Under the pieces are notes generated by a model. That model made no database searches and was not told where the DNA came from. It worked only from the letters and a program-made list of their open reading frames with translations. From a virus, in the IMG/VR virus record IMGVR_UViG_3300008952_002707, positions 7,183 through 71,182 of that record: a DNA stretch of 64,000 nt, one strand, 5' to 3'. Within the stretch, counting starts at the first letter, position 1, and the number at the start of each line of letters is the position of its first letter. The position numbers and the translations under genes were made by a program. This document shows positions 1 through 25,016 of the stretch, piece after piece.

Positions 1-29
1 ACCTATATATTAATAGCAAAGGGACCTCT

Positions 30-2989: not shown

Positions 2990-2998
2990 GGAATAAAT

Positions 2999-8993: not shown

Positions 8994-8995
8994 TT

Positions 8996-10417: not shown

Positions 10418-10424
10418 GGAGAAG

Positions 10425-11348
10425 ATGATGAAAGCAATAGTACTAGGACATACGGGATTTGTTGGTAAAAATCTTGTAACCTTTTTAGAACAGAACAATA
10501 TTGAAACGGTGGGGCTCTCCCGCGATGAGTGTGATCTACGTGATTACGATGAGACGATTCAAGCACTTCAGGAGCATGCTGATGTAGACGTTATTTTTAA
10601 TTGTGCAGCGAACGTAGGAAGCGTCCACTATGTTACTTCTTATGCTGGAGACGTTATTCATGATAATACGTTAATGGCCCTTAATTTATATCGAAGTGTA
10701 TTGATGGCATGCCCTACAGCTGTCATAGTTAATCCGCTATCAAACTGTTGCTACGCCAACGGAACAGAAATCCAGGATGAAACTAAGTGGCTTGAAGGAG
10801 CAGTGCACCCCTCCGTCTTTTCCTTTGGGAACTTCAAGAGAGTTTTATATTATATCGCGGGCTGCTACAATATACAGTATGGCGTACGCAGCGTAAATCT
10901 CATGTTCCCCGGCATCTATGGACCAGGGGACAGCACAGACCCCAATAAGGTACACGCACTTAACGGAATGATTATACGCATGTTGGGTGCTATCGAAACA
11001 AACGATGAGAAGTTTGAGATTTGGGGAACCGGAAAGCCGGTCCGAGAATGGATATATATTGATGATGTGTGTAAAATTATGCATAAGTCAATTGATCTAG
11101 GCGACGTAATTGAGCCAATCAACGTTGCTCAAGGAAAAGGGTTTACGATTGCTGAAACCGGTGGGTGCATCGCAGCTGCCACAGGGTATTCGGGCGAATT
11201 GACATTCAATACCGATTATCAAGACGGTGCCCCCGTGAAGATTTTAGGGATGGGTAAATTTGCAACGATGTTTGAGGGGTATGAATTCTCTGATCATCAA
11301 GAAGGTATAAGCCATACGGTTGAATATTATAAAGGAGTATTGAAGTAA
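10425..11348 (+). CDS. GDP-L-fucose synthase-like epimerase/reductase
   Basis: GHTGFVG, CAANVG, SNCCY, YGPGD...VHAL, IWGTGKPVREWIYIDD, DGAP; YxxxK is altered to FxxxK. Confidence 0.8.
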   Translation: MMKAIVLGHTGFVGKNLVTFLEQNNIETVGLSRDECDLRDYDETIQALQEHADVDVIFNCAANVGSVHYVTSYAGDVIHDNTLMALNLYRSVLMACPTAVIVNPLSNCCYANGTEIQDETKWLEGAVHPSVFSFGNFKRVLYYIAGCYNIQYGVRSVNLMFPGIYGPGDSTDPNKVHALNGMIIRMLGAIETNDEKFEIWGTGKPVREWIYIDDVCKIMHKSIDLGDVIEPINVAQGKGFTIAETGGCIAAATGYSGELTFNTDYQDGAPVKILGMGKFATMFEGYEFSDHQEGISHTVEYYKGVLK

Positions 11349-12481
11349 TGGAACAGGATTATAAGATGGAAGAGCCCATCATCCGATGCTGGAGCGTGTT
11401 TATTCCAGACCATGCGGGTGAAGAGGTGACAAAGACCCTTAAGTCTACGTGGATTAACACCGGGAAGAAAGAGAAAGAATTCAGAGAGAAGATTTGTGCG
11501 CGCTTTAACGCTCCATATGCAGTTGCATGCATGACTGGCACAGCTGCCCTCAAAATAGCCCTTAAAGCACTGGGAGTAGGACCAGGCGATGAGGTGGTGA
11601 GCACCCCGTTTACCTTTATCGCTACAAACACAGCCATTCTAGAAGTAGGCGCCACTCCCGTCTTTGCAGATATTCAGTACGATACCCTAAATATTGACCC
11701 CCAGAGTGTTGCCGAGAAAATTACAGATAAAACCAAAGCTATTATGTGTGTTCATTATGCCGGCAACCCAGTCGATCTAGACGAATTACGAGAAGTTGCT
11801 GCAGCTCACAATCTCCCGATCATCGAGGATAGTGCCCACGCCCAAGGTGCGAAGTACAAGGGTAATCCGATCGGATCCACAGGAGACGTAGCAACGTTCT
11901 CCTTCCAGTGTGTGAAGATCGTCACCAGCGGCGACGGCGGCGTCATTACTACGACGCGCCCTGAGGTCTATGCCAAGCTCAAGAAGCAGTCATGGTATGG
12001 TATCGATCGCGATACAAAGAAGACCAGCATTCTTGACCCCCTCCCTGCCCCTCCTGACGGTCTAGGCTTTAAGTCTAACATGAATGACATCACGGCCACT
12101 TTAGCATGCGTAGCCATTGACAGCCTAGACGAAGCTCTCTCCATCCGTCGCGTTATTGGAGAACATTATCGTGAAGAACTCGGGGGGCTATCGAAAGTTA
12201 CCCTCGTCGATTACAAGGATCACTGGACTCCTAACTATCAGATATTTCCCATCCATGTAGAATCCCGCGCTGAGTTTGCGCAGTTCATGTGGGATCGAAA
12301 TATTCAAGTTAATGTCAACAACAGGCGCAACGATGTCTATGAGATGTTCGGCGGAATATGCGACCTCCCCAATCTTAAACGAGCTGATGAAGATGTTATC
12401 CTCATTCCGCTCCATGCTGACCTTACGACTCATGACGTAACTCGCGTTATCACTGCTATCAAGGAATATGATGCTCTATGA
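11348..12481 (+). CDS. DegT/DnrJ/EryC1/StrS PLP sugar aminotransferase
   Basis: GTAAL, GDEVV, FIAT, IIEDSAHA, FSFQCVKIVTSGDGG. Confidence 0.92.
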   Translation: MEQDYKMEEPIIRCWSVFIPDHAGEEVTKTLKSTWINTGKKEKEFREKICARFNAPYAVACMTGTAALKIALKALGVGPGDEVVSTPFTFIATNTAILEVGATPVFADIQYDTLNIDPQSVAEKITDKTKAIMCVHYAGNPVDLDELREVAAAHNLPIIEDSAHAQGAKYKGNPIGSTGDVATFSFQCVKIVTSGDGGVITTTRPEVYAKLKKQSWYGIDRDTKKTSILDPLPAPPDGLGFKSNMNDITATLACVAIDSLDEALSIRRVIGEHYREELGGLSKVTLVDYKDHWTPNYQIFPIHVESRAEFAQFMWDRNIQVNVNNRRNDVYEMFGGICDLPNLKRADEDVILIPLHADLTTHDVTRVITAIKEYDAL

Positions 12482-13194
12482 GAGCACTTATTGGACATAC
12501 AGGATTCGTAGGATCGAATATTCTAGAACAATCTAGTTTTGATAAGTGCTATAATTCCAAAAACATAGAGTCTATAGCAGGCGAAAAATTTGATACTGTG
12601 GTCTGTGCAGGCGTAAGCAGTATTAAGTGGAAAGCAAACAAGGATCCTAAAGAAGACTTTAAGCAAATTCAACGACTTATAGAGCACTTAGGAAAGGCTG
12701 AGTTTAAAAAATTAATCCTAATTTCTACGATTGCTGTTTATGATAATCCGGCAAATAGTTCCTATGGCAGCCATAGATTATATCTAGAAACCTATTTAAA
12801 GAACACTTACGAAGATACTTATATTACCCGATTGCCCTCCTTATTCGGAAAAGGATTAAAAAAGAATGTTATATATGATCTAATGAATAAGGATTATAGG
12901 TTCCTCCCTGGTCCGTGGAGTTTCTTTCAATATTATTGTCTAGACAATATATGGTCAGACATCATAAAACAGCTTGAACTAGGAATTAAGGTTTTAAACC
13001 TGAGTACCGAACCGACGCCTTTTGATAAGATTCTCAGCCTGTTTGAGATAGAGCCCGAGAAAATTGTCCGAGGGAAGACAGTACAAGAGAAGATGACGTC
13101 AGATTACGCTATACACTGGGGCAAAAAGGGAAGGTATCTATATACACAGTCGGAAGTCCTGACTGACTTAAGGAGATTTATAAACGATGAATGA
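12478..13194 (+). CDS. NAD-dependent epimerase/dehydratase-like SDR
   Basis: LIGHTGFVGS, ISTIAVY, YGSHR, RLPSLFG. Confidence 0.78.
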   Translation: MRALIGHTGFVGSNILEQSSFDKCYNSKNIESIAGEKFDTVVCAGVSSIKWKANKDPKEDFKQIQRLIEHLGKAEFKKLILISTIAVYDNPANSSYGSHRLYLETYLKNTYEDTYITRLPSLFGKGLKKNVIYDLMNKDYRFLPGPWSFFQYYCLDNIWSDIIKQLELGIKVLNLSTEPTPFDKILSLFEIEPEKIVRGKTVQEKMTSDYAIHWGKKGRYLYTQSEVLTDLRRFINDE

Positions 13195-13495
13195 ATATTA
13201 TCAATATTATCTAACACTTCACACGCACCCTAAGTGCAGGTTATTGCATTTTATTGGCCAATGGGCGACTTTAATATTTGCCGTCGCAGTTTTTACCGCA
13301 AACTTGTGGTACCTTATACCATTAATACCATTCATTGTCTATCCCTTTGCGTGGGCCGGCCATCTCTACTTTGAGAAAAACAAGCCTTTAGCCTGGGAAG
13401 GCACGAATGATTATGGATGGACAACGCTGAAGGCCAAAGTTTGTGATTGGATCATGTTTAAAGACATTTTATTAGGGAGATTAAAGATATGGTAA
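13187..13495 (+). CDS. DUF962/Mpo1-like membrane protein
   Basis: YLTLHTHPKCRLLHFIG, hydrophobic segments, FAWAGHLYFEKNKP. Confidence 0.8.
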   Translation: MNEYYQYYLTLHTHPKCRLLHFIGQWATLIFAVAVFTANLWYLIPLIPFIVYPFAWAGHLYFEKNKPLAWEGTNDYGWTTLKAKVCDWIMFKDILLGRLKIW

Positions 13496-14436
13496 AAAAG
13501 AAAATATTGGTTACTGGCGGCGCCGGCTACGTGGGGACTGCCCTACTGCCGCGTCTTCTAGAGGCTGGACATGAAGTTACAGTATTTGATAATTTAATGC
13601 AAGGTGGAAATCAGCTTTTATCATTTTTTCGCAACAAAAACTTTCACTTCGTGAACGGGGATGTCACCATTAAGGGCGACCTAGAGTCGGCAGTAAAAGA
13701 GAAGGATATCATTATTCATTTGGCTGCAATTGTTGGATTCCCAGCATGCAAAAACAATCCTGAGTTAGCCACTGCTGTTAACGTCGGGGGGACACAGAAT
13801 TTAATTGATGTTACCACACCGGACCAAGTTATCTTTTATGGTTCGACTGGGAGCAACTATGGTAAGGTGACAGATATTTGTACTGAAGAATCTCCCCTTA
13901 ACCCGTTAAGCCTATATGGCGAAACCAAGACACAAGCCGAACATATGCTGATGGCTCGTGGAAATGTTGTGGCATACAGATTCGCAACTGCCTTTGGAGT
14001 ATCGCCTCGCTTACGTTTAGATTTACTTATAAATGACTTTACAAACAAGTGCCTGCGGGATGGATATTTGGTAGTGTACGAAAAGAACTTTATGCGAACG
14101 TTTATTCATGTCTCAGATATGGCCGCAGCTTTTATGTTAGCGGTCAACAATGTTGACAAGATGGTAAACAATGTTTATAATATTGGCGACGACACGATGA
14201 ACTATAGCAAAGAAGAAATTTGCAATATGGTTTCGGAGAAGACAAATGGGTTCATCCATTTCGAGGAAATTGGCTCGGATGCAGATAAAAGGAACTATGT
14301 TGTCAGTTATGATAAGGTGAGAGCGCTTGGGTTCAGAACTCAGGTAAGCATTGAGGACGGCATCGATGAGATTATTAAAGCCTTAAACGTTATTGATTTT
14401 ATTAATCCATACGTTAATATTAAAAGGGGACTCTGA
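13489..14436 (+). CDS. NAD-dependent nucleotide-sugar epimerase/dehydratase
   Basis: VTGGAGYVG, HLAAIVG, YGETK, RFATAFGVSPRLRLDL. Confidence 0.9.
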   Translation: MVKKKILVTGGAGYVGTALLPRLLEAGHEVTVFDNLMQGGNQLLSFFRNKNFHFVNGDVTIKGDLESAVKEKDIIIHLAAIVGFPACKNNPELATAVNVGGTQNLIDVTTPDQVIFYGSTGSNYGKVTDICTEESPLNPLSLYGETKTQAEHMLMARGNVVAYRFATAFGVSPRLRLDLLINDFTNKCLRDGYLVVYEKNFMRTFIHVSDMAAAFMLAVNNVDKMVNNVYNIGDDTMNYSKEEICNMVSEKTNGFIHFEEIGSDADKRNYVVSYDKVRALGFRTQVSIEDGIDEIIKALNVIDFINPYVNIKRGL

Positions 14437-14438
14437 TC

Positions 14439-15041
14439 ATGGCAAAATATGATTTAAACATTTTACGCGCGAGCAACGAAAATCTTAAACACACTTGGAA
14501 GTCGCATCCCAACGTTCATGCCGCCGTAACCCCCGGGGGAGATAAAGAGTATATGAAGCTCTTCCGCGAACACTACGATGGATTCACTGGTTCGATCCTA
14601 GAGATCGGCGCCGGGACTGGCTTTTTAGCTAATGAGATATTAACCCATTATCCTAATATAGATTATACGATTTTAGACATTGAAAAAAACATTGAAGAAG
14701 TGGTTAAGAAGACTTTGATCGACCACCCGGAGGTGAAGTATATTACATCTGCTAACTATGAAAAGGTTTTTGATGAGCAATATGATATGCTATTAGAAAC
14801 TCATTGTCTTTCGGAAACTCCGCGATACTATTACACCAATCTTTTTAATAATTTATCTATAAAATCTTGTTTTGTCATCGACTACGGAGGCGATCCCACT
14901 GATCCTGGGTTTAATGATTCACTCCTGGCATGGTTCGAGCAATTTCCTTCTAAACAAGTGTTAAAGAATTATAACTTAGCCGGCGGTAAACTGAAAGGCA
15001 TCCCGGTTTATATAGGAAAGCCAGATGATAGCTCCGGCTGA
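14439..15041 (+). CDS. Class I SAM-dependent methyltransferase (putative sugar O-methyltransferase)
   Basis: ILEIGAGTG, YTILDI, HCLSE. Confidence 0.75.
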   Translation: MAKYDLNILRASNENLKHTWKSHPNVHAAVTPGGDKEYMKLFREHYDGFTGSILEIGAGTGFLANEILTHYPNIDYTILDIEKNIEEVVKKTLIDHPEVKYITSANYEKVFDEQYDMLLETHCLSETPRYYYTNLFNNLSIKSCFVIDYGGDPTDPGFNDSLLAWFEQFPSKQVLKNYNLAGGKLKGIPVYIGKPDDSSG

Positions 15042-15753
15042 TATTAAGAACCCATTTGGTGATTATAAAAACAGTCACCTAGGTCGCTCTGGCGTCCTCT
15101 TCGGCTCGGGACCCTCACTACTTCAGTTCGACACTACCAATCTTCCGGATAATGTTTTGCGCTTTGGAGTTAATGATCAGATTTTTCTAGATTTAGATTT
15201 AGATTATTGGTTTATGGGCGACTCCGTCCCTCAAGTCCCTGCTAAGTTTTGGGATCGGCTGCATCTATATAACAACTATACCCCTAAGCTTCAAAAGTTT
15301 ATCCGTTTCTGCGATTGGAAAGATGACAGAAAAATCATCGTACCTCCGTATGGACAGGTGGCTCGCAATGGGCAGCTTCCGCTGGGAATGAAAAACTCTA
15401 AGTATTATGTAGCAGGAAGCGGCGGAAACCCAGAGACATGTCTGTTCAAAAAGGACATTGCCGAGGGTCATCTGACAGCTGTAGCATCTATCTCTTTTGA
15501 AGTGCTGCAATTTATGTTATACTGTGGAATACAAAAGATCTACTTGGTAGGACATGATTGTGATTACACTAATGGAACTTTTGCAAAGATTATGATTGGC
15601 AAACAACAACAGGCTGATTATTATATTTTGAGATACTGGAGACATGTAAAAGAGTGGATCGGACAGAACTATCCTGATGTACAGATTTACAGTATTAATC
15701 CGGTGGCCCTTGATATATTTCCAGAAGCTCAGATAAAGGAGATAAAATGTTAG
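15025..15753 (+). CDS. Maf/DUF115 (MptE-like) fold protein, putative ulosonic-acid transferase
   Basis: LFGSGPSL, GVND, IYLVGHDCDY. Confidence 0.7.
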   Translation: MIAPADIKNPFGDYKNSHLGRSGVLFGSGPSLLQFDTTNLPDNVLRFGVNDQIFLDLDLDYWFMGDSVPQVPAKFWDRLHLYNNYTPKLQKFIRFCDWKDDRKIIVPPYGQVARNGQLPLGMKNSKYYVAGSGGNPETCLFKKDIAEGHLTAVASISFEVLQFMLYCGIQKIYLVGHDCDYTNGTFAKIMIGKQQQADYYILRYWRHVKEWIGQNYPDVQIYSINPVALDIFPEAQIKEIKC

Positions 15754-16361
15754 ATATAGAAAATAAAAATATTTTTATTGACTTTGATGGAGTAATATGC
15801 GATTCTAATGAGATAAAGAAGGGAAACATAGAAGCCGCGGCGGCGTTGTATGTGGACAAGAAAACAGCACGAACATTTAGAGAATATTTCATCGCCAATA
15901 ACGGACTCCCGCGCGACCTAAAAACCAAAGAATTTTTTAAAGAAGATATGCAAGTTCCAACAGAAAAGATTTTAGAGGAGTATACAAAATTAAATGTAAA
16001 TCTTTTAGATGCTCCACTAAACACAGGTCTCATACGGTTCTTAAAGAAAAATTCTAACGACACGGTGTATATTCTCTCTGGTGGAAGCCGCGAAGAAATA
16101 GAAGAATATTTAGAGAAACAGGGTATAAGGGATTATTTTTATGAGATACTCTCTGCACCCACAACTAAGATTGAACATTTGAAAAATATAGAAAGGCGCC
16201 CCCATGATTTTTTTATAGGAGACTCGCGTTACGATTGTTTAGCCGCGACCGCGAGTGGGGTCAACTTCATCTTCATGAAGGGGCTGACGCAGGAGGCGCC
16301 GCCATTCAAGTTTTTAAGTGCCGACGATCAGGTTGTAGAGAATTTCATAGATTTATTATAA
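15747..16361 (+). CDS. HAD-superfamily phosphatase
   Basis: FIDFDGVICDS, ILSGG, K, FIGDSRYD. Confidence 0.85.
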   Translation: MLDIENKNIFIDFDGVICDSNEIKKGNIEAAAALYVDKKTARTFREYFIANNGLPRDLKTKEFFKEDMQVPTEKILEEYTKLNVNLLDAPLNTGLIRFLKKNSNDTVYILSGGSREEIEEYLEKQGIRDYFYEILSAPTTKIEHLKNIERRPHDFFIGDSRYDCLAATASGVNFIFMKGLTQEAPPFKFLSADDQVVENFIDLL

Positions 16362-16362
16362 T
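16333..16362 (+). promoter_or_regulatory. Possible sigma70-type promoter for the GAPDH-like sub-cassette
   Basis: TTGTAG-N18-TATAAT, followed by AGGA upstream of ATG 16387. Confidence 0.35.
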
Positions 16363-16386
16363 AACTCATAAGGACGCTTATATCGC

Positions 16387-17448
16387 ATGACAAGGGAAAA
16401 AATAAAAGTAGGAATCAATGGGCTTGGGCGTATTGGGAGAGCTATATTACGAAATAATCATTATAAAGAATTCCTTGACGTTAAGGTTATAAATGACATT
16501 AATCCTGATGCGCATAATTTAGCTTATACTCTAAATTATGACACTCTATATCCTTCTCCATTCAAATTCAAAGTTGATGATACGATTCTTGTTAGTGGTA
16601 ATTATCGTATAGCCATCTATAGCTGTAGAAACATAGACGAAGTGCCATGGGAGGATCATGATCTTGATTATATCATCGATGCTTCCGGAGTGTATGAAAA
16701 TGTTGTTAGAGCGAGAAAAATCCTAAGTCGAAAGAAGATCAAAAGAGTTTTTGTAACCCACTCCCCGGACATCGTAGATTTTCAGTTAGTATTGGGAGCT
16801 AACGAGGAAGAGTTAAATCTCGATGAGCATTTTTTAATTTCTACTAGTATTTGTGATGCTACTGCTATTGCTCCCGTGTTGAAATTGATAAATGATAAGT
16901 ATAAGATAACAAGTGGCTATATAACAACGTTGCATCCTTGGTTAAGTTATCAAAATCTGCAAGATGGTCCCGCTAGCTCCTGGTCAGTTCCGGGAGAGAT
17001 TTATCATCATTATGCATTGGGCCGTACGGCCATTGGGAATATGATTCCGAAGCCCACAACAGCAGTTACCCAAACTTGCAATGTTCTCAAGCGCCATAAT
17101 ATAACCGAGGAAATGATCGGGTCATTTTCCTATCGAACTCCTACTGCCATAGTTGGTAGCGCAGATGTTACCTTAAACGTCGCGACATCGGTTACATGTG
17201 ACGCTTTAATAGCCTGTCTTACAGAATATGAAGAGAAACAGAAGTGGCAAATTATTAAGAATAATATCGAGCCCCTGGTGTCTTTGGATTTTAAGCAGAT
17301 AGATTATTCCGCGATTGTAGATAACAGATGGACTAGTGTCATCGGGGACAATCTTATAAAAGTAGTTTTGTGGTATGATAACGAGTATGGTTATGCTGGG
17401 AAAGTTGTTGAGCAGATTAAGTATGTCAATGACTTGCTCGATGGGTAA
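16387..17448 (+). CDS. Divergent GAPDH/erythrose-4-phosphate dehydrogenase-family protein
   Basis: VGINGLGRIGR, IND, IDASG, catalytic ICDAT (canonical SCTTN), TTLH, WYDNEYGY. Confidence 0.88.
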   Translation: MTREKIKVGINGLGRIGRAILRNNHYKEFLDVKVINDINPDAHNLAYTLNYDTLYPSPFKFKVDDTILVSGNYRIAIYSCRNIDEVPWEDHDLDYIIDASGVYENVVRARKILSRKKIKRVFVTHSPDIVDFQLVLGANEEELNLDEHFLISTSICDATAIAPVLKLINDKYKITSGYITTLHPWLSYQNLQDGPASSWSVPGEIYHHYALGRTAIGNMIPKPTTAVTQTCNVLKRHNITEEMIGSFSYRTPTAIVGSADVTLNVATSVTCDALIACLTEYEEKQKWQIIKNNIEPLVSLDFKQIDYSAIVDNRWTSVIGDNLIKVVLWYDNEYGYAGKVVEQIKYVNDLLDG

Positions 17449-17453
17449 AATAT

Positions 17454-18206
17454 ATGGAAAATAAATTAGTAGCTATGATCCCAGCTCGGTTAGGAAGTAA
17501 AAGGGTCACAGGAAAGAGTTTGCGGCTGCTTAATAAGAAGCCCCTCATTTCTTATTGTATAGATGCCCTCAAGGAGACTGCCCACTTCTCTGACATCTGT
17601 ATTAATTCAGACTCAGAACTGTATGAGCAGGTAGCTCTTCGCGAGTCAGTTAAATTTTATAAAAGAAGACCAGAACTAGCTACCAGTGAATCGTTGATAG
17701 ATGATTATATTTATGATTTTGTGTTGCATACAGATGCAGACTACCTGGCAATTGTAAATCCTACGTCTCCGTTTGTGACGTCCGATGAATATGATCGCGC
17801 ATGGGAGCAGTATAGAAATGGTGACTGCGATACCCTCTTATCATGCGAGAGAATTCAGACTCATTGTTTTTATCAAGGGATCCCGGTTAATTTCGACCGC
17901 GACGGGCAGCATCCAAGGTCGCAGGATTTGGAGCCTTTACTGGCATTGAATTTTGCTATAACAATAATTAATTGTGAGAAATATCGACAAAATTATGAGA
18001 AGCATCAATGGGGACTATATACTGGGACCTTGGGTTTTTTTGAAACAAGCGGCATAGGCTCCATAGATATCGATTACGAAGAGGATTTTCAACTGGCAGA
18101 GTTTATGTCTCAATTTATGGAAGCTCAATCTTCTAATGAGTTTTCGAAAGAGTACGATCCAATAATACAGCCGCTCATTGATTCCGGTAGGGACATTACT
18201 AGTTGA
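17454..18206 (+). CDS. CMP-ulosonate synthetase (NeuA/KdsB-like cytidylyltransferase)
   Basis: MIPARLGSKRVTGKSLR, RRPELA, PTSPF, IDIDYEEDF. Confidence 0.88.
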   Translation: MENKLVAMIPARLGSKRVTGKSLRLLNKKPLISYCIDALKETAHFSDICINSDSELYEQVALRESVKFYKRRPELATSESLIDDYIYDFVLHTDADYLAIVNPTSPFVTSDEYDRAWEQYRNGDCDTLLSCERIQTHCFYQGIPVNFDRDGQHPRSQDLEPLLALNFAITIINCEKYRQNYEKHQWGLYTGTLGFFETSGIGSIDIDYEEDFQLAEFMSQFMEAQSSNEFSKEYDPIIQPLIDSGRDITS

Positions 18207-18820
18207 AGCATGCTCTCCCAATAACTGAGAATATCCACTGTTTAGCTCTAAATTATAGGGGAGTGGGGGATAACTCACAAGATCCACTATATTTTGTTAA
18301 ATCGTTAAATGCAATGTGTTTTAGTAATAGTCATGTTGAATATCCTCAACTATCAAATCAGTTTTGGACAGAGCCCGAGCTGGCAGTTTTTATTAGTGAG
18401 GAATGCCACAATGTGGAAGCGTCCGCCGTTATGGAAGTCATTCTTGGAGTTACTCTGGGAGCGGACCTCACTTGTCAGAATGTCCATCACCGCGATCATC
18501 ACTTAGCGTTTTCAAAAAGCCGAAAAAACTTCTGCCCAGTGGTGGAAGAGTACCTTTCGCCTACGATTCTAGACCAATCCTCAGAATTCGTGCTCCGTAC
18601 TTTTATAAACGGAAAACTTACTCAAGAGGGAAACACGAAGGACATGAAATACAACTTATTGGAATCTATATCTTATATATCAAGAATAACTGAGCTTAAG
18701 CGGGGAGACCTTATCTTAACGGGAACGCCCGCCGGCGTAGAAAACAATATATTGCAACGTGGGGACAGAGTGCTGCACACACTTGATGATAAACTTGAAT
18801 TACGATTTGAGGTGGTCTAA
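18203..18820 (+). CDS. Fumarylacetoacetate hydrolase (FAH)-family protein
   Basis: TTG start; LALNY, YFVK, EPELAV, ADLT, SKS, GDLILTGTPAGV. Confidence 0.85.
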   Translation: MKHALPITENIHCLALNYRGVGDNSQDPLYFVKSLNAMCFSNSHVEYPQLSNQFWTEPELAVFISEECHNVEASAVMEVILGVTLGADLTCQNVHHRDHHLAFSKSRKNFCPVVEEYLSPTILDQSSEFVLRTFINGKLTQEGNTKDMKYNLLESISYISRITELKRGDLILTGTPAGVENNILQRGDRVLHTLDDKLELRFEVV

Positions 18821-18822
18821 AA

Positions 18823-19767
18823 GTGTCAAAGATAGTTATAACGGATTATTTTTCAGCCCCGGGATCCCCGGAAACACGTATTTTGGGCAATTTAGTGGGG
18901 GTAGAGGCTACAGAAGAAACCGAAGTCCTCATGGTCTGGCACGATATAATCGATGAAGACTATATTAAAGATATACCTCGCTTAAAAGGAGTACAGAGAT
19001 ACGGCGTCGGCTTCGACAATTTAGATATTGATTACCTTAAATCGCGGGGGATTGTATGTTGCAACAACCCTGATTATGGAGTAGACGAGGTATCCGATAC
19101 GGCATTGTCTATGATTTTAAATTTCACCCGTGGCACGACCAGTTACAACGAAAGGGCAAAATGCTTATATAACACATGGCAAGAGAACGTTATACCCACA
19201 GTTCGAAGACACTCAGAAATGACACTAGGAATAATCGGCGCAGGGCGAATAGGAGGATCACTAATTCAAAAAGCCAAAGCTTTAAAGTTCAACATTGTTT
19301 TCTATGATAAGTATCAGCCGAGTGGAATTGAAAAGTTGCACGGTGTGCAGCGGATGGAATCCTTGGAGGACTTGTTGGGCGCATCAGATATTGTGTCAGT
19401 ACATATACCCAGCAATGACGAAACGAGGGGGATGATAAATAAAGAATTTATAGAGCGTATGAAAGACGACTCGATATTGGTTAATACTGCACGAGGTGAT
19501 CTGATAGAAAGCTTGGATGTCTTATACGACGGATTAAAGTCTAAAAAAATATCTAAGATAGCCTTGGACGTCCTCCCGGAGGAACCCCCGATTACTAGCC
19601 CCCTGATAAATGATTGGCGATCGAGCTTAGGTTGGATTAGGGATCGTCTTATTATTAATCCACATACGGCTTACTACTCCGTAGAGGCTATCGAAGAGAT
19701 GAGAGTAAAAGCGGCAACTAATGCACTGCGTATATTGAAAGGGCAAACACCTTTAAACATTGTATGA
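18823..19767 (+). CDS. D-isomer-specific 2-hydroxyacid dehydrogenase (CtBP-like)
   Basis: RYGVGFDNLD, PDYGVDEVSD, GIIGAGRIG, VNTARG, DVLPEEP, NPHTAYYS. Confidence 0.9.
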   Translation: MSKIVITDYFSAPGSPETRILGNLVGVEATEETEVLMVWHDIIDEDYIKDIPRLKGVQRYGVGFDNLDIDYLKSRGIVCCNNPDYGVDEVSDTALSMILNFTRGTTSYNERAKCLYNTWQENVIPTVRRHSEMTLGIIGAGRIGGSLIQKAKALKFNIVFYDKYQPSGIEKLHGVQRMESLEDLLGASDIVSVHIPSNDETRGMINKEFIERMKDDSILVNTARGDLIESLDVLYDGLKSKKISKIALDVLPEEPPITSPLINDWRSSLGWIRDRLIINPHTAYYSVEAIEEMRVKAATNALRILKGQTPLNIV

Positions 19768-19780
19768 GATCCATTATAAT
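19752..19780 (+). promoter_or_regulatory. Possible sigma70-type promoter
   Basis: TTTAAA-N17-TATAAT ahead of AAGGGA and ATG 19805. Confidence 0.4.
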
Positions 19781-19804
19781 ATATAAAGCAAAAAGGGAAA
19801 AATA

Positions 19805-20440
19805 ATGAAACATAACCCATATCAAGTAATCACGACTTTCGAGGAATTAATAGCCGAGTATTGCGGTGCACCCTATGCGGTAGCCGTAGACAACGCCACA
19901 AATGGCTTATTTTTATGCATGAAATACCTAGGTCTAGAAGACCAAGAGATAACAATTCCGGCTATTACCTTCATGTCGGTACCCTGTGCTATTATTCATG
20001 CGGGAAATAAGGTAAATTTTGACAAGAATCATCCGTCTATTGTTGATGGAAAGCGCCTTCGAGGGCAGTATAAGCTGGAGCCCTTCCCTATCTGGGACAG
20101 CGCGCTGACCTTTAGCAAGAATATGTATATACCTGGGCAATTCCAGTGCCTTTCGTTTAGTGGTCCCCATAAGTTTTTAAAGCTTGGAAAGGGCGGGATG
20201 ATTTTGACCGACAGCAAAGAGGCTTATGATTGGCTGAAACGCGCTGCCTATTTCGGACGTCGTCCCGTAGACCATAAAGTTGAGGAATTTGACATGCTTG
20301 GGTGGAATTATTATATGCTTCCCGAGATCGCCGCAAGGGGAGCTGTTTTGATGCTGGGCATAAAAGATGAAAATGAAGATCTGGAAATTGAATACCAAGA
20401 TCTATCTAAATATAAAGTATATACGGAGGGAAACCGATGA
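19805..20440 (+). CDS. Short DegT/DnrJ-family PLP protein
   Basis: FEELIAEY, VDNATNGL, TFMSV, WDSA, LSFSGPHKFLKLGKGG, GWNY; lacks the C-terminal domain. Confidence 0.8.
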   Translation: MKHNPYQVITTFEELIAEYCGAPYAVAVDNATNGLFLCMKYLGLEDQEITIPAITFMSVPCAIIHAGNKVNFDKNHPSIVDGKRLRGQYKLEPFPIWDSALTFSKNMYIPGQFQCLSFSGPHKFLKLGKGGMILTDSKEAYDWLKRAAYFGRRPVDHKVEEFDMLGWNYYMLPEIAARGAVLMLGIKDENEDLEIEYQDLSKYKVYTEGNR

Positions 20441-21828
20441 AAAAGGTTATTTTAATACAGCCCTATTATGAAAATATCTGGGAACCTATTGGGTTAGGGT
20501 TTATTGCGGGGTATCTGAAAAAGTACCACGAAGGAGAATTGGATCTACGATGTTATCAGGGAAACTTTGACACAGATGAAACTATTGTGGAAGCATGTAT
20601 AGGAGCTGATGTAGTTGGATTCTCCTGTACCTCTCCGGCGTGGCCGCATGCGCTGCGTTTGGCAGGGGAGATTAAAGAGGTTAGCCCCTCCACTCGAACT
20701 GTGTTCGGAGGGTGGCACCCGTCCGCGCTTCCACAGGAATGCGCAGCACACCCGTTTGTTGATCAGGTGGTAATTGGAGAAGGAGAAGAGATCTTTCTAG
20801 ACGTTGTTAACGGAAACACCGATCCCATCGTTCGGGGCACAAAGCCATCGATGCTCGATCTCCCATGGCCGGACCGCGAGATTATCAAAAACTATAGAAC
20901 AGTGGATCTATGTGAAACCATGAACGGAAAGAGAACAGCTTCCTTTCAATGCAATCGGGTGTGTCCCGTAGCTTGTGCGTTTTGCGCGGAGAGAGTAATA
21001 ACCGGAACACGGAACCGCCGTGATAACCCAATTCGCTCCCGTCCGGTCCCAGAACTGTGTGATGAAATTGAGCATGTTATTAAAGAACTAAATCTAAATT
21101 ATTTTAAGTTCGTCGATGCAACGTTTGATATCACCGCAGATTTTGTTATTGAGTTTTGCAAAGAAAAGATTAAGAGAGGCATCACAACAGAGTGGGAATG
21201 TCTTATCCATGCTACTTTTGCTAGTGAAGAGATGTTTAGGTGGCTTAAACTGGCACAATGCCATCAGGTTAATATTGGCGTTGAGACCGGAAGCCCACGA
21301 ATCCTGAGAGATATCAAAAAAGGACTCACGATTAAAAGTGTAAAGAATGTGTTTGCTTGGGCCAAGAAACATGGCGTCGAACGAAGGGGCTTCTTCCTCT
21401 TTGGTATGCCAAACGAAACCCGGGCAGATCTATTACTCACTGAAGAACTAATAGATGAGATCGACCCAGATGTCGTCGGGTTCACCATATTGTGCCCCTA
21501 TCCGGGAACCGACCTTTATAAGCCGGAGCTACATCAAAATGTAGATTGGGAAAAGGCTGATGAATATTCTAACGACTTTTGGTGCACTGAGCACTTCACC
21601 AATATCGAGTTGAAAGCGCAACAAGCCTATTTTAAAACCAAATATGATTTATTGCTTTGCGAACGCCAAGAGGATTCCTCACAAGGCGGAGGCTTCGGCG
21701 ACATGCGAGAACTAGAAAAACAGTCGACGTCCACCCCGATTGGAACAAGTGTTAAAAATGTTAAAATGCCAGCACCTCAACCGACCGTAGTACAGCTTGA
21801 GCGCTCCAAGACAACGACCGAAACTTAA
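20437..21828 (+). CDS. Cobalamin-binding radical SAM protein (class B methyltransferase-like)
   Basis: PIGLGFIA, FGGWHPS, GEGE, CPVACAFC (CxxxCxxC), GVETGS, PYPGT. Confidence 0.9.
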   Translation: MKKVILIQPYYENIWEPIGLGFIAGYLKKYHEGELDLRCYQGNFDTDETIVEACIGADVVGFSCTSPAWPHALRLAGEIKEVSPSTRTVFGGWHPSALPQECAAHPFVDQVVIGEGEEIFLDVVNGNTDPIVRGTKPSMLDLPWPDREIIKNYRTVDLCETMNGKRTASFQCNRVCPVACAFCAERVITGTRNRRDNPIRSRPVPELCDEIEHVIKELNLNYFKFVDATFDITADFVIEFCKEKIKRGITTEWECLIHATFASEEMFRWLKLAQCHQVNIGVETGSPRILRDIKKGLTIKSVKNVFAWAKKHGVERRGFFLFGMPNETRADLLLTEELIDEIDPDVVGFTILCPYPGTDLYKPELHQNVDWEKADEYSNDFWCTEHFTNIELKAQQAYFKTKYDLLLCERQEDSSQGGGFGDMRELEKQSTSTPIGTSVKNVKMPAPQPTVVQLERSKTTTET

Positions 21829-21829
21829 T

Positions 21830-22789
21830 ATGATGAACTTGCTTGTAACAGGTGGCTGCGGCTTCATCGGATCCAATTTCATAAAAATGGTGCTCGATGA
21901 GTCTCATCGCGATTTGGTATCCAAGGTAGTTAATTTGGATGCTTTAACGTATGCTGGCGATCTAGAGAATACTAAAGATTTTCATGCTGACGACAAATAT
22001 GTGTTCGAAGAGGTAAACTTATGCAACCCCGCCGCGTTACTAAGGGTATTCGTGGAGCACGGTATAACTCATGTGGTACACCTTGCAGCAGAAAGTCATG
22101 TGGATAATTCTATTTTAGATCCTAGCGCCTTTGTAGACAGTAATATTTTAGGAACGTTTAATCTTTTAAAGATTGCGCGACAACTAAAAGTTGAGAGGTT
22201 CCATCACGTGTCAACTGATGAAGTGTACGGAGAGCTAGGAGAAACAGGCAAGTTTGATGAGAACACAGCATACGACCCTCGAAATCCATACTCTGCGTCC
22301 AAGGCAGCGTCAGATTTTCTAGTGATGTCTTATTTTCATACTTATAAACTGCCTGTCACAATCTCTAACTGCTCAAACAACTACGGACCTCATCAGCATG
22401 ATGAAAAATTTATTCCCACTGTGATTCGTTCTTTGACAAACAAAAAGAAGATCCCTTTATATGGCGCGGGACTGAATGTCCGTGACTGGATTTATGTAGG
22501 AGATCATTGTGAGGGCATCTGGAAGGTATTGGAAGATGGCGTTCTAGGGGAGACATACTGTATTGGGTCTAATTGCGAAAAACGTAATGTTGAGGTCATC
22601 GACACCATCTGTACATCGATGGGCGTTGTCCCGTCTGAATGGGTAGAACACGTTGAAGACCGCTTAAGTCATGATTATCGTTACGCTATCGACAATAAAA
22701 AAATTAAAGAAGATTTGAATTGGTCCCCTAGAGTCACCTTCGAAGAGGGTATACAGAAAACGATTGATTGGTATAATGAAAAGTATTAA
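21830..22789 (+). CDS. rmlB: dTDP-glucose 4,6-dehydratase
   Basis: VTGGCGFIGS, LDALTYAG, HLAAESHVD, VSTDEVYG, YSASK, NCSNNYGP, HDYRY; ATG at 21830. Confidence 0.95.
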   Translation: MMNLLVTGGCGFIGSNFIKMVLDESHRDLVSKVVNLDALTYAGDLENTKDFHADDKYVFEEVNLCNPAALLRVFVEHGITHVVHLAAESHVDNSILDPSAFVDSNILGTFNLLKIARQLKVERFHHVSTDEVYGELGETGKFDENTAYDPRNPYSASKAASDFLVMSYFHTYKLPVTISNCSNNYGPHQHDEKFIPTVIRSLTNKKKIPLYGAGLNVRDWIYVGDHCEGIWKVLEDGVLGETYCIGSNCEKRNVEVIDTICTSMGVVPSEWVEHVEDRLSHDYRYAIDNKKIKEDLNWSPRVTFEEGIQKTIDWYNEKY

Positions 22790-23498
22790 AGGAATTATTT
22801 TAGCCGGCGGACAAGGTACGCGACTCTACCCTCTCACTAAAGTTACTAACAAACACTTGCTTCCCATCGCAGGGGAGCCAATGATTTATTATCCCTTGCG
22901 AAAACTGACCGAAGCCGGCGTCAAAGATATTATGGTGGTCACAGGTGTTGATCACGCCACCGGGATTACGTCTCTACTGGGCTCTGGGAAAGATCACAAC
23001 TGTTCCCTCACCTATAAGGTTCAAGACGAACCTGACGGCATTGCCGGAGCCCTGAGGCTGTGTCGTAATTTCGTAGGAGATTCATCTTGCGTGGTCCTCC
23101 TGGGGGACAATATTTTTAAGGATAATTTAAAAGAAGAGGTGGCATCCTTCTTACAGGGCGACGAAGATTGCCGGCTCTTCTTTAAGCGAGTCGCAGATCC
23201 TCGCCGCTACGGTGTGGGGACCTTTGTAGAAGACAAACTAGTGGAGTTGAATGAAAAGCCTGAAAAGCCCGAGAGCAATTTGGCTTGTGTTGGTATCTAC
23301 TTTTATTCTAATAAAGTTTTTGACGCCATTGAACAAGTGGAGCGCTCCGATCGCGGAGAGTATGAGATAACCAGCGTTAATAATACCTTTATTGACAAGG
23401 ATAGTTGTAGCTGGGCAACCCTCGAAGATGTCTGGTCTGACGCAGGAACCATGGACTCCTATCATACCACTAATTGGTTAATGTATAAGGAGAAATAA
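22776..23498 (+). CDS. rmlA: Glucose-1-phosphate thymidylyltransferase
   Basis: GIILAGGQGTRLYPLT...NKHLLP, LGDN, EKP, RGEYEIT, DAGT. Confidence 0.93.
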   Translation: MKSIKGIILAGGQGTRLYPLTKVTNKHLLPIAGEPMIYYPLRKLTEAGVKDIMVVTGVDHATGITSLLGSGKDHNCSLTYKVQDEPDGIAGALRLCRNFVGDSSCVVLLGDNIFKDNLKEEVASFLQGDEDCRLFFKRVADPRRYGVGTFVEDKLVELNEKPEKPESNLACVGIYFYSNKVFDAIEQVERSDRGEYEITSVNNTFIDKDSCSWATLEDVWSDAGTMDSYHTTNWLMYKEK

Positions 23499-24206
23499 AT
23501 GAAGTTGCTGCTGACTACTAGAGCAGATAATACTAGCTGGGAGTGGGCCAAACTTGTCCACCCGCTATTCCAACAATATGCGCACCGAATCGGAGCAGAC
23601 TTTCTTGTACTTGACGAAGCCACCGACGCCAAAGATGCTACCGGAGGAATCGGCAACGGAGTGTATCAGTACCGAATCCTGAAGCACTATGATTTACACG
23701 AGCACTATGATCGGATTATAGCTTTGGATACTGACATGATCCTGATGCCATCACTACCCAATCTATTTGACGTTGTCCCCTATGACAGTGTAGGTTCGAT
23801 TTACGAAGACATAGGTACCCGCGCCCCACAACGCCACCAGTGCATGCTTGCCGCGCAGCAACAATTTGGAGAGATCGGATGGACGTCTGGATATATTAAT
23901 ACGGGGGTGTTTGTTACTTCTAAGTGCCATCGGGATATCTATCGTAAAATTAATGATCAATATTTCGTTGCATGGGGAACAGATGATATTCATATTGGGT
24001 ACCTCATAAATAAGTATGGGTATAAGGTTCACGAACTTTCCTATCAGTTTAATCACATGACGATGTATTCTGAAAGCTGGAACGACTCACCCAACCGCTT
24101 TGACTCACACATTATTCACTATGCGGGTAGAGGAGTGTTCGATGAGGGCGCAGCCCGCAATAAGATGCACCAAGCTCAATTGGATTACGAAAGAGTATAC
24201 GGATGA
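23499..24206 (+). CDS. GT-A glycosyltransferase (GT8-like)
   Basis: ALDTD (DxD), YINTGVFV, IIHYAG. Confidence 0.75.
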   Translation: MKLLLTTRADNTSWEWAKLVHPLFQQYAHRIGADFLVLDEATDAKDATGGIGNGVYQYRILKHYDLHEHYDRIIALDTDMILMPSLPNLFDVVPYDSVGSIYEDIGTRAPQRHQCMLAAQQQFGEIGWTSGYINTGVFVTSKCHRDIYRKINDQYFVAWGTDDIHIGYLINKYGYKVHELSYQFNHMTMYSESWNDSPNRFDSHIIHYAGRGVFDEGAARNKMHQAQLDYERVYG

Positions 24207-25015: not shown

Positions 25016-25016
25016 A

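Follow-up and report, generated by a model that had tools for sequence, protein, structure and literature searches.

A widespread but uncharacterised gene cassette in a marine T4-like phage may yield a CMP-activated acidic keto-sugar

Described relatives of the cassette

The CMP-nonulosonic acid and CMP-Kdo pathways combine a synthase (NeuB, PseI, LegI or KdsA), a phosphatase such as KdsC, and a CMP-transferase (NeuA, PseF, LegF or KdsB). Like them, the five-enzyme cassette described here lies in surface-glycan loci, includes a phosphatase step, has a neighbour with a sialyltransferase fold and encodes a CTP_transf_3 enzyme in which the P-loop, PRxQD and DxD motifs are conserved. Unlike these pathways, it lacks a PEP-condensing synthase, its transferase scores under every equivalog cut-off, its phosphatase is HAD-IA-like whereas that of the CMP-Kdo pathway is KdsC-like, and its two dehydrogenases and FAH/HpcH enzyme have no counterpart there.

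The dehydrogenases recall pyridoxal phosphate synthesis, where Epd (GapB) and PdxB are likewise a non-canonical GAPDH-family aldehyde-phosphate dehydrogenase followed by a D-2-hydroxyacid dehydrogenase, giving a 2-oxo acid phosphate. Yet the cassette enzymes score well below the corresponding cut-offs (158.6 bits against 539 for Epd, 84 against 434 for PdxB), and the partners of their genes are a CMP-transferase and glycan genes instead of SerC, PdxA or PdxJ. The first-pass annotation had drawn this analogy; the pairing of the two enzyme families stands, but the nearest solved relatives of the second enzyme are CtBP, then D-LDH, then PGDH, so that neither PdxB nor PGDH is as close to it as CtBP and D-LDH. 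The remaining enzyme sits in a slot filled by members of two families known from homoprotocatechuate/glucarate-type pathways, HpcE/HpaG (FAH fold) and the HpcH/HpaI/GarL aldolases. The context of the cassette is biosynthetic (a glycan locus with a CMP-transferase), not catabolic, and none of the other genes of those pathways is present with it.

Finally, the gene adjoining the cassette in the phage resembles Maf flagellin glycosyltransferases and the GT42 enzymes Cst-I and Cst-II, because the predicted fold of its 242-aa product corresponds almost end to end to those of Cst-II and the Maf central domain. It lacks the Maf flanking domains (the Maf chain 5mu5 has 632 residues) and, unlike Maf, it is phage-encoded and has a Pfam MptE-like score under the cut-off; a domain search of the window, by which we mean the whole 64,000-nucleotide stretch analysed, revealed no flagellin gene. 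We found no account of the cassette in the literature searched.

A six-ORF block in a phage glycan island

The virus record (71,182 bases, IMGVR_UViG_3300008952_002707) is a fragment of a marine T4-like phage, 45% complete according to CheckV. The window is phage DNA and not a bacterial glycan locus: it encodes PhoH, two baseplate proteins (gp25 and a wedge protein) and a late sigma factor-like protein. Within a 23-kb glycan island of this fragment, six ORFs at 15025-19767 were confirmed as real (Table 1). They lie on the same strand and are closely spaced (-17 to +25 nt): the first overlaps the preceding methyltransferase ORF by 17 nt, and the following junctions are -7, +25, +5, -4 and +2 nt. 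Profile matches bear out the domains initially assigned to them (Maf, HAD, GAPDH-like, CMP-synthetase, FAH and 2-hydroxyacid dehydrogenase), with Maf limited to its core domain; all but the Maf-like ORF constitute the cassette.

Table 1. Features of the block and its surroundings (window positions)
Positions	Strand	Feature	Evidence
14153..14181	+	Sigma-70-type consensus TTGACA-17 nt-TATAAT, possible early promoter	12-of-12 match
14439..15041	+	SAM-dependent methyltransferase	MTS, Methyltransf_12/25, E about 1e-6; 17-nt overlap with next ORF
15025..15753	+	Stand-alone Maf-core/Cst-II (GT42)-fold protein, 242 aa	Predicted structure comparison
15747..16361	+	HAD-IA-type phosphatase, DFDGV motif	HAD_2, E 8.6e-10
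16387..17448	+	GAPDH-family dehydrogenase	Gp_dh_N, E 3e-21; Gp_dh_C, E 3.9e-22
17454..18206	+	NeuA/PseF/KdsB-superfamily CMP-transferase, distinct subfamily	CTP_transf_3, E 2e-20, 73.9 bits
18203..18820	+	Small FAH-family enzyme, in variable slot	FAA_hydrolase, E 7.9e-37
18823..19767	+	D-isomer-specific 2-hydroxyacid dehydrogenase	2-Hacid_dh_C, E 3.9e-42
19805..20440	+	Short DegT-like protein, 211 aa, extended block (probable)	Weak match to L019 gene
20437..21828	+	B12-binding radical SAM enzyme, extended block	Orthologues adjoining cassette elsewhere
23499..24206	+	GT8-like glycosyltransferase, extended block	Glyco_transf_8, E 8.9e-4

The block is AT-rich, as had been judged by eye, but only mildly so (GC content of 40.3% against 44.3% in the window, at the 5.7th percentile of same-length windows). 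A TATAAT of its own had also been proposed, and a promoter-like site is indeed present: the only perfect match to the consensus within 2500-21000 lies about 850 nt 5' of 15025, inside the preceding epimerase ORF, and weaker 10-of-12 matches occur at 15596-15624 and 19752-19780. Judging from its sequence, the perfect match is a possible promoter for the methyltransferase, the Maf-like gene and the cassette.

The GAPDH-like enzyme keeps the catalytic Cys149 and His176, which are invariant, together with Arg231, in 21 orthologues. Its inorganic-phosphate site is rebuilt (S148 to I, T150 to D, T179 to L, R195 to L), the same residues being replaced in all 21, and its S-loop has an 11-residue insertion; as read from these residues, the acyl-phosphate-forming site is no longer that of GAPDH. 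The GAPDH-I score is 205 bits for a cut-off of 367. The CMP-transferase keeps the motifs of CMP-sialate synthetases, since its P-loop (PARLGSKR), its sugar-site motif (PRSQD) and DIDxxxD align to those of the murine CMP-NeuAc synthetase 1qwj, while its equivalog scores are low (74 bits for PseF, with a cut-off of 205.7, and at most 37 bits for KdsB). The FAH enzyme is nearest to HpcE/HpaG (105.7 bits), and the translation of the 2-hydroxyacid dehydrogenase contains, by eye, GxGxxG and the Arg, Glu and His residues.

The 242-aa protein was first described as a Maf-like transferase. It has only a weak match to MptE-like/DUF115 (E 3.6e-3, 17.5 bits against a cut-off of 34.6), but its AF2 model (pLDDT 92.8) has the sialyltransferase/Maf-core fold, with a VIA-align Z of 12.3 to Maf 5mu5 (196 aligned residues, rmsd 3.9) and Foldseek best matches to Cst-II. 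The values for Cst-II (11.4), Cst-I (11.0) and the non-transferase MptE HPPK (11.0) tie with that for Maf within about one unit, which counts against the transferase reading. This protein, reduced to the Maf core domain, is a candidate transferase for the CMP-activated product. In Bacteroidota loci, a protein adjoining the cassette matches Alpha-2,8-polysialyltransferase (24.8 bits, cut-off 23.3) and GT52.

Several neighbours recur with the cassette elsewhere. Orthologues of the 242-aa protein (38-40% identity), the radical SAM enzyme (57.7-58.8%) and the GT8-like glycosyltransferase (41%) adjoin it in loci L018, L019 and L037. The DegT-like ORF is probably part of the extended block, given a weak match (23% over 168 aa, E 0.003) to a 357-aa DegT-like gene at the equivalent position in L019. 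Methyltransferases are also found within or beside the cassette at L030 and L035, and that of the phage probably decorates the cassette product or a neighbouring sugar.

Recurrence and variation of the cassette

What the phage carries is one copy of a biosynthetic cassette that is widespread and also present in many unrelated bacteria. The first-pass annotation asked for a synteny search and held that failure of the genes to co-occur elsewhere would count against it; they do co-occur, in 23 bacterial genome loci (syntenic, proteins 31-62% identical), in further viral contigs (three in one count, five in another) and, as relatives of the cassette, in at least 437 metagenome stretches. Going by their record titles, the genome loci include Cytophagales, Cryomorphaceae, Calditrichaeota, Prochlorococcus, Cyanobium, Thioalkalivibrio, Terriglobia, Ignavibacteriaceae and Chitinophaga. 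Genes for Wzy, GT4, GT2 and sulfotransferases mark them as polysaccharide loci. The viral contigs comprise one phage represented twice (L001 and L002), another T4-like phage (L003) and the more distant L038-L040. Neither set is a random sample: the genomes were found via window-type CMP-transferases, and the metagenome loci are the best-scoring 80 stretches.

The position of the FAH gene is variable. Among 69 loci spanning the cassette, 25 have FAH alone, 25 an HpcH/HpaI aldolase alone, 17 neither and only two both, so that the two families are nearly mutually exclusive; the loci with the aldolase (Pfam HpcH_HpaI, E 1e-11 to 1e-33 in sister cassettes) include all three more distant viral cassettes. 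The CMP-transferase co-varies with the slot, being 45-62% identical to that of the window in the FAH class and at most 31% identical, or undetected, in the HpcH class, whereas the GAPDH-like enzyme is 51-63% identical in both classes of metagenome loci. A HAD-like gene was detected near the cassette in 13/14 FAH-class, 14/22 HpcH-class and 7/9 empty-slot metagenome loci; for the genome loci, the count is 10 of 21. A core of GAPDH-like enzyme, 2-hydroxyacid dehydrogenase, HAD and CMP-transferase recurs without any slot enzyme.

Candidate routes to the product

Our tentative reading is that the cassette builds and CMP-activates an acidic keto-sugar without the usual sialic-acid-type synthase. 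We infer each step, with its substrates, from the enzyme families: a phosphorylated aldehyde from central metabolism would be oxidised to the acid, the 2-hydroxyl would be oxidised to a 2-oxo group, the phosphate would be removed, and CMP would be coupled to the resulting ulosonic-type acid, an oxidative course from aldose phosphate through aldonate phosphate and 2-keto acid to CMP-sugar. FAH would have a Mg-dependent enolising role: before CMP is attached, it would modify the acid, by tautomerisation, 3-epimerisation, dehydration or decarboxylation for instance. This NeuB-independent route, proposed in the first-pass annotation, is supported in outline by gene content, by co-occurrence and by the 17 of 69 loci in which the core lacks a C-C-forming enzyme, as predicted for a self-sufficient oxidative pathway. 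GAPDH-family enzymes are known to act on triose and tetrose phosphates, and the 2-oxo acids derived from these cannot cyclise into the ring used by KdsB/NeuA-type enzymes, which argues against it.

The replacement of FAH by HpcH in half of the filled slots makes an aldol route a serious, if rather unlikely, alternative, in which C-C bond formation may be central instead of accessory. Here the two dehydrogenases and the HAD would convert glyceraldehyde-3-phosphate into a three-carbon 2-oxo acid or aldehyde, such as hydroxypyruvate or tartronate semialdehyde, and the slot enzyme would join it to a partner in a counterpart of the NeuB step of sialic acid synthesis, giving a six-carbon 2-keto(-3-deoxy) acid or diacid for CMP activation. 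The case is clearest for the HpcH aldolase, whose family includes 2-dehydro-3-deoxyglucarate aldolase (pyruvate plus tartronate semialdehyde); FAH would be the analogous pyruvate-enolate-stabilising enzyme, and both families bind 2-oxo-acid enolates on Mg. The near-exclusive slot exchange, the transferase that changes with it beside a constant GAPDH-like enzyme, a HAD of the small-acid-phosphate HAD-IA type and not KdsC type, and the presence in L027, 2.4 kb upstream of the cassette, of a fusion between NeuB and a xylose-isomerase-like TIM barrel all fit this route. Yet we know of no FAH-family aldolase, a dedicated GAPDH-like enzyme is hard to explain if it makes the already abundant 3-phosphoglycerate, and 12 of the 17 loci with neither slot enzyme also lack a NeuB-like gene in the fetched stretch. 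A synthase encoded elsewhere is less likely still: the substrate activated by the transferase would be a Kdo derivative or nonulosonic acid whose synthase belongs to the host or to the unsequenced part of the phage, and the other enzymes would modify the ulosonate or else produce or change a side group, such as an N-acyl of the glyceroyl type. N-glyceroyl nonulosonic acids exist, their genetic basis being described as unknown (PMC5378307). The first-pass annotation saw no NeuB or KdsA in the window, and profile searches found no NeuB (PF03102) or KdsA-type DAHP_synth_1 (PF00793) in the whole record, nor an HpcH aldolase, and no phage record has NeuB; but with the record 45% complete, either synthase could act in trans, supplied by the rest of the phage genome or by the host. 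In 11 of 20 genomes, the contig with the cassette also has a strong NeuB, 5-23 kb away and within the same glycan region, and all 20 genomes tested have a KdsA-type gene, making a Kdo-derived substrate possible. Against this, every one of the 11 genomes with a strong NeuB within 25 kb has another CTP_transf_3 gene no more than about 7 kb from that NeuB, so that the transferase of the cassette is the extra one, and only 12 of 103 fetched loci have a NeuB-like gene. True NeuB is absent from 6 of 23 cassette genomes (G003, G004, G006, G008, G020, G115), and the most phage-like loci (L018, L019, L037) are in genomes without it; weak matches in three of the six fall on DAHP-synthase genes and were rejected. 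In G004, the only CMP-transferases are a KdsB-type gene beside a KdsA-type gene, that of the cassette, and a marginal 22.7-bit fragment match. Profile searches of the window, one of them covering 13187-25880, also found no NeuC, PseB, PseC, PseG or PseH equivalogs.

The product might not be a sugar, although we consider this improbable: a CMP- or CDP-linked small acid of the glycerate or erythronate type could end as a phosphodiester-linked or ester substituent instead of a glycosyl residue. GAPDH-family and PGDH-like enzymes normally use such C3/C4 acids, which cannot cyclise, and directly upstream of the cassette in eight Bacteroidota loci is a TagF-like protein that weakly matches Glyphos_transf (E 7e-6 to 8e-4). 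However, all characterised CTP_transf_3 members make, to our knowledge, CMP-ulosonates, the sialate-synthetase sugar site is retained, and neighbouring transferases have sialyltransferase-type folds or matches. That these are ordinary auxiliary metabolic genes (GAPDH, SerA/PdxB, phosphatase and FAH) boosting host central metabolism independently of the glycan genes is very improbable and already disfavoured; family-level names speak for it, but the scores are far under equivalog cut-offs, the phosphate site of the GAPDH-like enzyme is rebuilt, and synteny with the CMP-transferase inside glycan loci is fixed across many phyla.

The adjoining Maf-core/Cst-II-fold protein would transfer the CMP-activated acid to an acceptor, either a glycan or a protein. 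Expression of the block by the phage, perhaps at an early stage and from a host-type promoter, would serve to decorate its own virion or the surface of the host.

A conserved cassette in a T4-like phage and in bacterial glycan loci

The window covers bases 7183-71182 of a 71,182-base IMG/VR record that CheckV rates as 45% complete, and its + strand carries almost all of its long ORFs. It starts with a PIN-PhoH fusion and a PD-(D/E)XK nuclease, and further in it encodes a gp25 baseplate protein, a baseplate wedge protein, a DnaG-like primase and a late-sigma-like protein (phrog_234). The wedge protein is 30% identical to its counterparts in Flavobacterium phage vB_FspM_immuto and Microcystis phage Mel-JY01. 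The cassette therefore belongs to a T4-like phage rather than to a bacterial chromosome. It sits in a glycan island of about 3.0-25.9 kb. The island includes GT4, GT-D and GT8-like transferases, heptose-activation-like genes, RmlA/RmlB, DegT aminotransferases, several SDR epimerases and a B12-radical-SAM enzyme.

The six ORFs that the first-pass annotation had assigned to the block (15025-19767) were recovered at these coordinates and in the same families, with junctions of -17 to +25 nt between them. Its impression that the block is AT-rich was correct, but the bias is mild (GC 40.3% against 44.3% in the window, the 5.7th percentile of same-length windows). The block had been noted to have its own TATAAT; a perfect TTGACA-17-TATAAT precedes the methyltransferase gene, which overlaps with the first ORF. 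Such a consensus sigma-70 site suggests that host polymerase may transcribe these genes early. More than 20 glycan genes surround the block and a structural module adjoins it, in which two giant proteins (1836 and 3914 aa) are probably fibre or host-recognition proteins. A glycan made with the help of the phage block could decorate the virion or remodel the surface of the infected cell.

Other island genes have features of their own (see the table). Three of them are less similar than their neighbours to the copies in L001 and L002, two loci of the same phage, suggesting local mosaicism inside one phage species. The DegT-like protein downstream of the block is weakly similar overall (23%, E 0.003) to the 357-aa DegT-like protein in locus L019, and one Lys lines up with the putative catalytic Lys region of the latter. 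The neighbouring B12-binding radical SAM enzyme may be a sugar C-methyltransferase. An ORF near the end of the island was considered as a hidden aldolase and rejected: in Atlas its companions are viral clusters, of which one is partly GT9-like, and no sign of an aldolase emerged.

Features of the window and of related loci (L-numbers), with coordinates
Feature	Location	Observation
PIN-PhoH fusion	window 3-1349	PhoH E 7.8e-55, PIN_4 E 2e-26
Heptose-activation-like genes of the phage island	window 7196-8656; L014:6663-7175	Cytidylyltransferase-like protein, PfkB kinase, small HAD; further HldE-like piece upstream
830-aa protein	L014:244-2736	Weak cytidyltransferase PHROG matches
Three island genes	window 9704-10417, 10425-11348, 12478-13194	81-89% identical to L001/L002 copies; neighbours 93-100%
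Mpo1-like (DUF962) protein, 102 aa	window 13187-13495	Among sugar genes, E 3.1e-19
TTGACA-17-TATAAT	window 14153-14181	
Methyltransferase gene	window 14439-15041	
242-aa ORF	window 15025-15753	
HAD	window 15747-16361	
GAPDH-like	window 16387-17448	
CMP-transferase	window 17454-18206	
FAH	window 18203-18820	
D-2-hydroxyacid dehydrogenase	window 18823-19767	
DegT-like protein, 211 aa	window 19805-20440	95.7% conserved in L001 and L002
B12-binding radical SAM enzyme	window 20437-21828	57.7-58.8% identical to cassette neighbours in Calditrichaeota- and Deferribacteres-labelled MAGs
ORF considered as aldolase	window 24203-25015	
Giant ORF, 1836 aa	window 29975-35485	No family; structural module, beside baseplate genes
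Giant ORF, 3914 aa	window 39227-50971	Four Laminin_G_3 domains, E 3.8e-50; structural module, beside baseplate genes
Aldolase set	L022:3117-7780; L029:12556-17959	HpcH/HpaI aldolase, inositol-monophosphatase-family protein, strongly scoring CTP_transf_3; in L029 also GFO/IDH/MocA oxidoreductase and 2-hydroxyacid dehydrogenase
NeuB fusion, 761 aa	L027:4254-6539	NeuB domain (E 6.8e-76) fused to xylose-isomerase-like TIM barrel (AP_endonuc_2); 2.4 kb upstream of cassette
CTP_transf_3 -> 2-hydroxyacid dehydrogenase pair	L028:18896-20570; L031:1105-2570; L033:3786-5392; L034:2653-4265	Second, distinct pair beside NeuB; in L034 also adjoins NeuC

Scanning genomes with a CMP-transferase alignment gave 23 loci. 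The gene set had been expected to recur elsewhere if it formed a pathway, and it does: HAD, GAPDH-like, CMP-transferase, FAH and 2-hydroxyacid dehydrogenase genes are syntenic in genome loci at 31-62% identity. These loci are labelled as Cytophagales, Cryomorphaceae, other Bacteroidota, Calditrichaeota, a Deferribacteres-labelled MAG, Prochlorococcus, Cyanobium, Thioalkalivibrio, Terriglobia/Solibacteraceae, Ignavibacteriaceae/Melioribacteraceae and Chitinophaga; going by the title of its record, L025 comes from a cultured carrier, Cyanobium sp. ATX 6A2. Bacterial cassettes are embedded in polysaccharide loci with Wzy, GT4, GT2, sulfotransferase and ATP-grasp genes; in Bacteroidota, a protein matching the polysialyltransferase and GT52 families lies 3' of the cassette and a weakly TagF-like protein 5' of it. 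Besides the cassette, the phage shares with loci L018, L019 and L037 the Maf-like gene (38-40%), the B12-radical-SAM gene (57.7-58.8%) and a GT8-like gene (41%). Metagenomes hold at least 437 relatives, the best 80 of which were kept for analysis. A GAPDH-like orthologue (E <= 1e-70) occurs in only 4 of 401 sampled Bacteroidota genomes, and at n=4 a two-by-two comparison of cassette and NeuB is underpowered. One Bacteroidia contig (L036 and L021) has a second, partial pair of CMP-transferase and 2-hydroxyacid dehydrogenase genes ~16 kb from the full cassette; the GAPDH-like gene of L021 is split into two ORFs of 269 and 92 aa.

Among viruses, L001 and L002 are ~98% identical to the window, and another T4-like phage, L003, carries a GAPDH-like gene 50% identical to ours, followed by a CTP_transf_3 gene. 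Viral loci L038-L040 are more distant (39-45% for the GAPDH-like protein). A DNA-level search of the block against GenBank phages gave no match, and cultured phages and plasmids, when searched by tblastn with the GAPDH-like protein and the CMP-transferase, yielded just ordinary GAPDH/Epd or NeuA-like genes, at no more than 33.5% identity. The cassette is real, widespread and phage-mobilised, and a full-text literature search brought up no account of it. As the phage copy shows, viruses move the cassette, and they probably use it during infection.

Alternation at the FAH position

Our main new result is that the FAH gene alternates with that of an HpcH/HpaI aldolase, which occupies its position in L038, L039 and L040. 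We counted this slot in loci spanning both the GAPDH-like and the 2-hydroxyacid dehydrogenase genes, excluding four copies from the same phage (L001, L002, L041, L042). Among the 69 loci (45 metagenomic, 21 genomic and 3 viral), and with tblastn detection at E <= 1e-6 and query coverage of at least 45%, 25 have FAH only, 25 HpcH only, two both (L028, L029) and 17 neither; in this sample the genome loci were found through the window-type transferase, and the metagenome loci are from the best 80 of at least 437.

The state of the slot is associated with the type of CMP-transferase. Where tblastn found this gene near the GAPDH-like gene in the FAH class, its product is 45-62% identical to that of the window, with one exception at 25%. 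In the HpcH class it is at most 31% identical or below the tblastn threshold, though Pfam still gives CTP_transf_3. The GAPDH-like protein is 51-63% identical in both classes alike (metagenome loci). Since the CMP-transferase co-varies with the slot while the GAPDH-like protein stays constant, FAH with one transferase clade and HpcH with another behave as exchangeable modules on a constant core.

The same glycan regions of L022 and L029 also hold a recurring set of aldolase, inositol-monophosphatase-family and CTP_transf_3 genes, which may represent a further aldolase-based ulosonate route.

Enzymes of the block

The GAPDH-like protein has Gp_dh_N and Gp_dh_C domains and aligns end to end with solved GAPDHs; it scores below the equivalog cut-offs of GAPDH-I (205.2 vs 367.2 bits) and Epd (158.6 vs 539). 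Cys149 and His176, which we take from the GAPDH literature to be catalytic, and Arg231, presumably the ligand of the substrate phosphate, are invariant across 21 orthologues. The residues that we assume to form the phosphate site (S148, T150, T179, R195, T208/G209) are I, D, L, L and P/T in all 21, and the S-loop has a fixed 11-residue insertion (GPASSWSvPGxIYHHYALGR). If these roles hold, the inorganic-phosphate site is gone and an acyl phosphate is an unlikely product.

The CMP-transferase passes the Pfam gathering score of CTP_transf_3 (73.9 bits vs 22.6) and reaches no equivalog (PseF 74.1 bits vs 205.7; KdsB models 20-37 vs 155-281). Its best solved relatives are NeuA-type enzymes: PARLGSKR, PRSQD and DIDxxxD, presumably the CTP P-loop, the sugar site (PRxQD) and the DxD metal motif, align to murine CMP-NeuAc synthetase 1qwj and are invariant in 14 orthologues. 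The 2-hydroxyacid dehydrogenase contains 2-Hacid_dh and 2-Hacid_dh_C domains (144.1 and 77.7 bits). Its supposed likeness to PdxB did not survive scoring (PdxB 84.2 bits vs 434; PGDH 188.6 vs 454), as the best PDB sequences are CtBP (145.7 bits) and D-LDH (137.8), with PGDH third (116.1). The FAH protein reaches 127.4 bits for FAA_hydrolase (cut-off 23.9), with HpcE/HpaG as the closest solved enzymes. All NCBIfam matches of the HAD protein are below cut-off (HAD-IA, HAD-IB, HAD-IIA, phosphoglycolate phosphatase, beta-PGM), and no KdsC-type model is among them. The phage enzymes might be taken for ordinary AMGs, a reading disfavoured by the sub-equivalog scores, the rebuilt Pi site and the fixed synteny with the CMP-transferase in glycan loci.

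The 242-aa ORF had been called a Maf-like transferase. Its structure model is confident (pLDDT 92.8) and resembles the central domain of Maf 5mu5 (Z 12.3, 196 residues aligned, rmsd 3.9), with Cst-II (Z 11.4), Cst-I (Z 11.0) and the MptE kinase (HPPK; Z 11.0) within ~1 Z. The sialyltransferase-like central-domain fold thus stands, but a full Maf does not (242 aa against ~600; Pfam MptE-like 17.5 bits vs 34.6), and the model describes a Maf-core-sized protein.

Possible routes to a CMP-activated acid

We know of no route to CMP-activated acidic sugars that does not begin with a NeuB- or KdsA-type PEP condensation. As the first-pass annotation had observed, neither synthase is in the window: the record holding the window (45% complete) has neither PF03102 nor a KdsA-type PF00793, nor does it have an HpcH aldolase. 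Viral records G421, G422 and G423 (3-30% complete) have no PF03102 match. Such a match was present in 18 of the 20 cassette genomes searched, but in G003, G004 and G020 the only matches are weak (39-49 bits) and fall on genes scoring 266-271 bits as DAHP synthase, so that true NeuB is found in 15 of 20. Three more Bacteroidota carriers either lack NeuB (G115) or have it on another contig (G039, G217), and overall true NeuB is missing in 6 of 23 cassette assemblies, of unstated completeness. The transferases of G004 are a KdsB-type enzyme beside a KdsA-type gene, that of the cassette, and one marginal 22.7-bit fragment match.

Of 103 fetched cassette loci, 12 include a NeuB-like gene. Eleven of the 20 genomes have a strong NeuB on the contig of the cassette, at a distance of 5-23 kb, and each time another CTP_transf_3 gene is present within ~7 kb of this NeuB (in L034 together with a NeuC-like epimerase). 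The nearby NeuB thus seems to belong to a complete nonulosonic acid pathway of its own. In L027, from a cyanobacterial MAG, we considered whether NeuB is served solely by the transferase of the cassette, and rejected this because a further CTP_transf_3 gene, cut by the locus edge, lies 4.4 kb upstream of that NeuB. The L027 NeuB is itself a fusion protein, and the match in Cyanobium genome G009, within an 863-aa open frame, may be a similar TIM-barrel fusion. Four loci have a second CTP_transf_3/2-hydroxyacid dehydrogenase pair beside NeuB (see the table).

Two dehydrogenases (for an aldehyde and for a 2-hydroxyacid), a phosphatase and a CMP-transferase form the constant set, beside sialyltransferase-fold transferases. 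In the oxidative route of the first-pass annotation, a phosphorylated aldehyde would be oxidised to an acid and this to a 2-oxo acid, which would be dephosphorylated and coupled to CMP, and the Maf-core protein would transfer the activated acid. We give this core route somewhat less than an even chance. The conserved cassette and the 17 core-only loci favour it, and these loci make it the most economical model, with one job per core enzyme and no C-C bond to make. Yet, enzymes of the GAPDH family are known to act on C3 and C4 substrates, and the derived 2-oxo acids cannot cyclise as the substrates of KdsB and NeuA do, which counts against it, as do the aldolase in the slot and the KdsA-type genes in all 20 cassette genomes.

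The slot and its co-varying CMP-transferase are better accounted for if HpcH joins hydroxypyruvate or pyruvate with an aldehyde and FAH is an analogous enolate-stabilising enzyme; such aldol chemistry leaves the core-only loci unexplained, and we regard it as unlikely, if worth serious thought. The ubiquity of KdsA-type genes leaves room, on genomic grounds, for a Kdo-derived substrate, and the CMP-transferase might simply activate a synthase-made acid or a Kdo derivative. The assemblies without true NeuB, and the dedicated transferase of every nearby NeuB, make such dependence improbable. That the product is a non-sugar CMP- or CDP-linked acid seems less probable still.

Short 2-ulosonic acids do occur in capsules, to judge from the 4-deoxy-2-hexulosonic acid of the E. 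coli K3 capsule, for which PMC10433991 lists a reference. In its passages covered, the Tannerella paper (PMC5378307) gives the genetics of N-glyceroyl nonulosonic acids as unknown, and the SugarBase preprint presents an MS method suited to unknown CMP-keto-acids; these passages contain no assignment for the cassette.

Our broadest proposal, held tentatively and with more doubt than the oxidative core itself, is a third, NeuB/KdsA-independent route to CMP-activated ulosonic-type acids, built from recruited glycolysis-like and serine-pathway-like dehydrogenases. Two-gene modules (FAH or HpcH, each with its CMP-transferase clade) would set different acids, and T4-like phages with a minimal Maf-core transferase would put an undescribed acidic sugar on the infected cell or the virion. 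CMP-activated sialic, pseudaminic and legionaminic acids and Kdo shape how phages, predators and immune systems recognise bacterial surfaces. If a CMP-acid is reached by other enzymes, this would mean a new class of surface sugar and new enzymology, with a GAPDH whose acyl-acceptor site has been rebuilt and an FAH or HpcH enzyme working in biosynthesis. It would also account for an unannotated gene set in the glycan islands of Prochlorococcus, Cyanobium and marine Bacteroidota.
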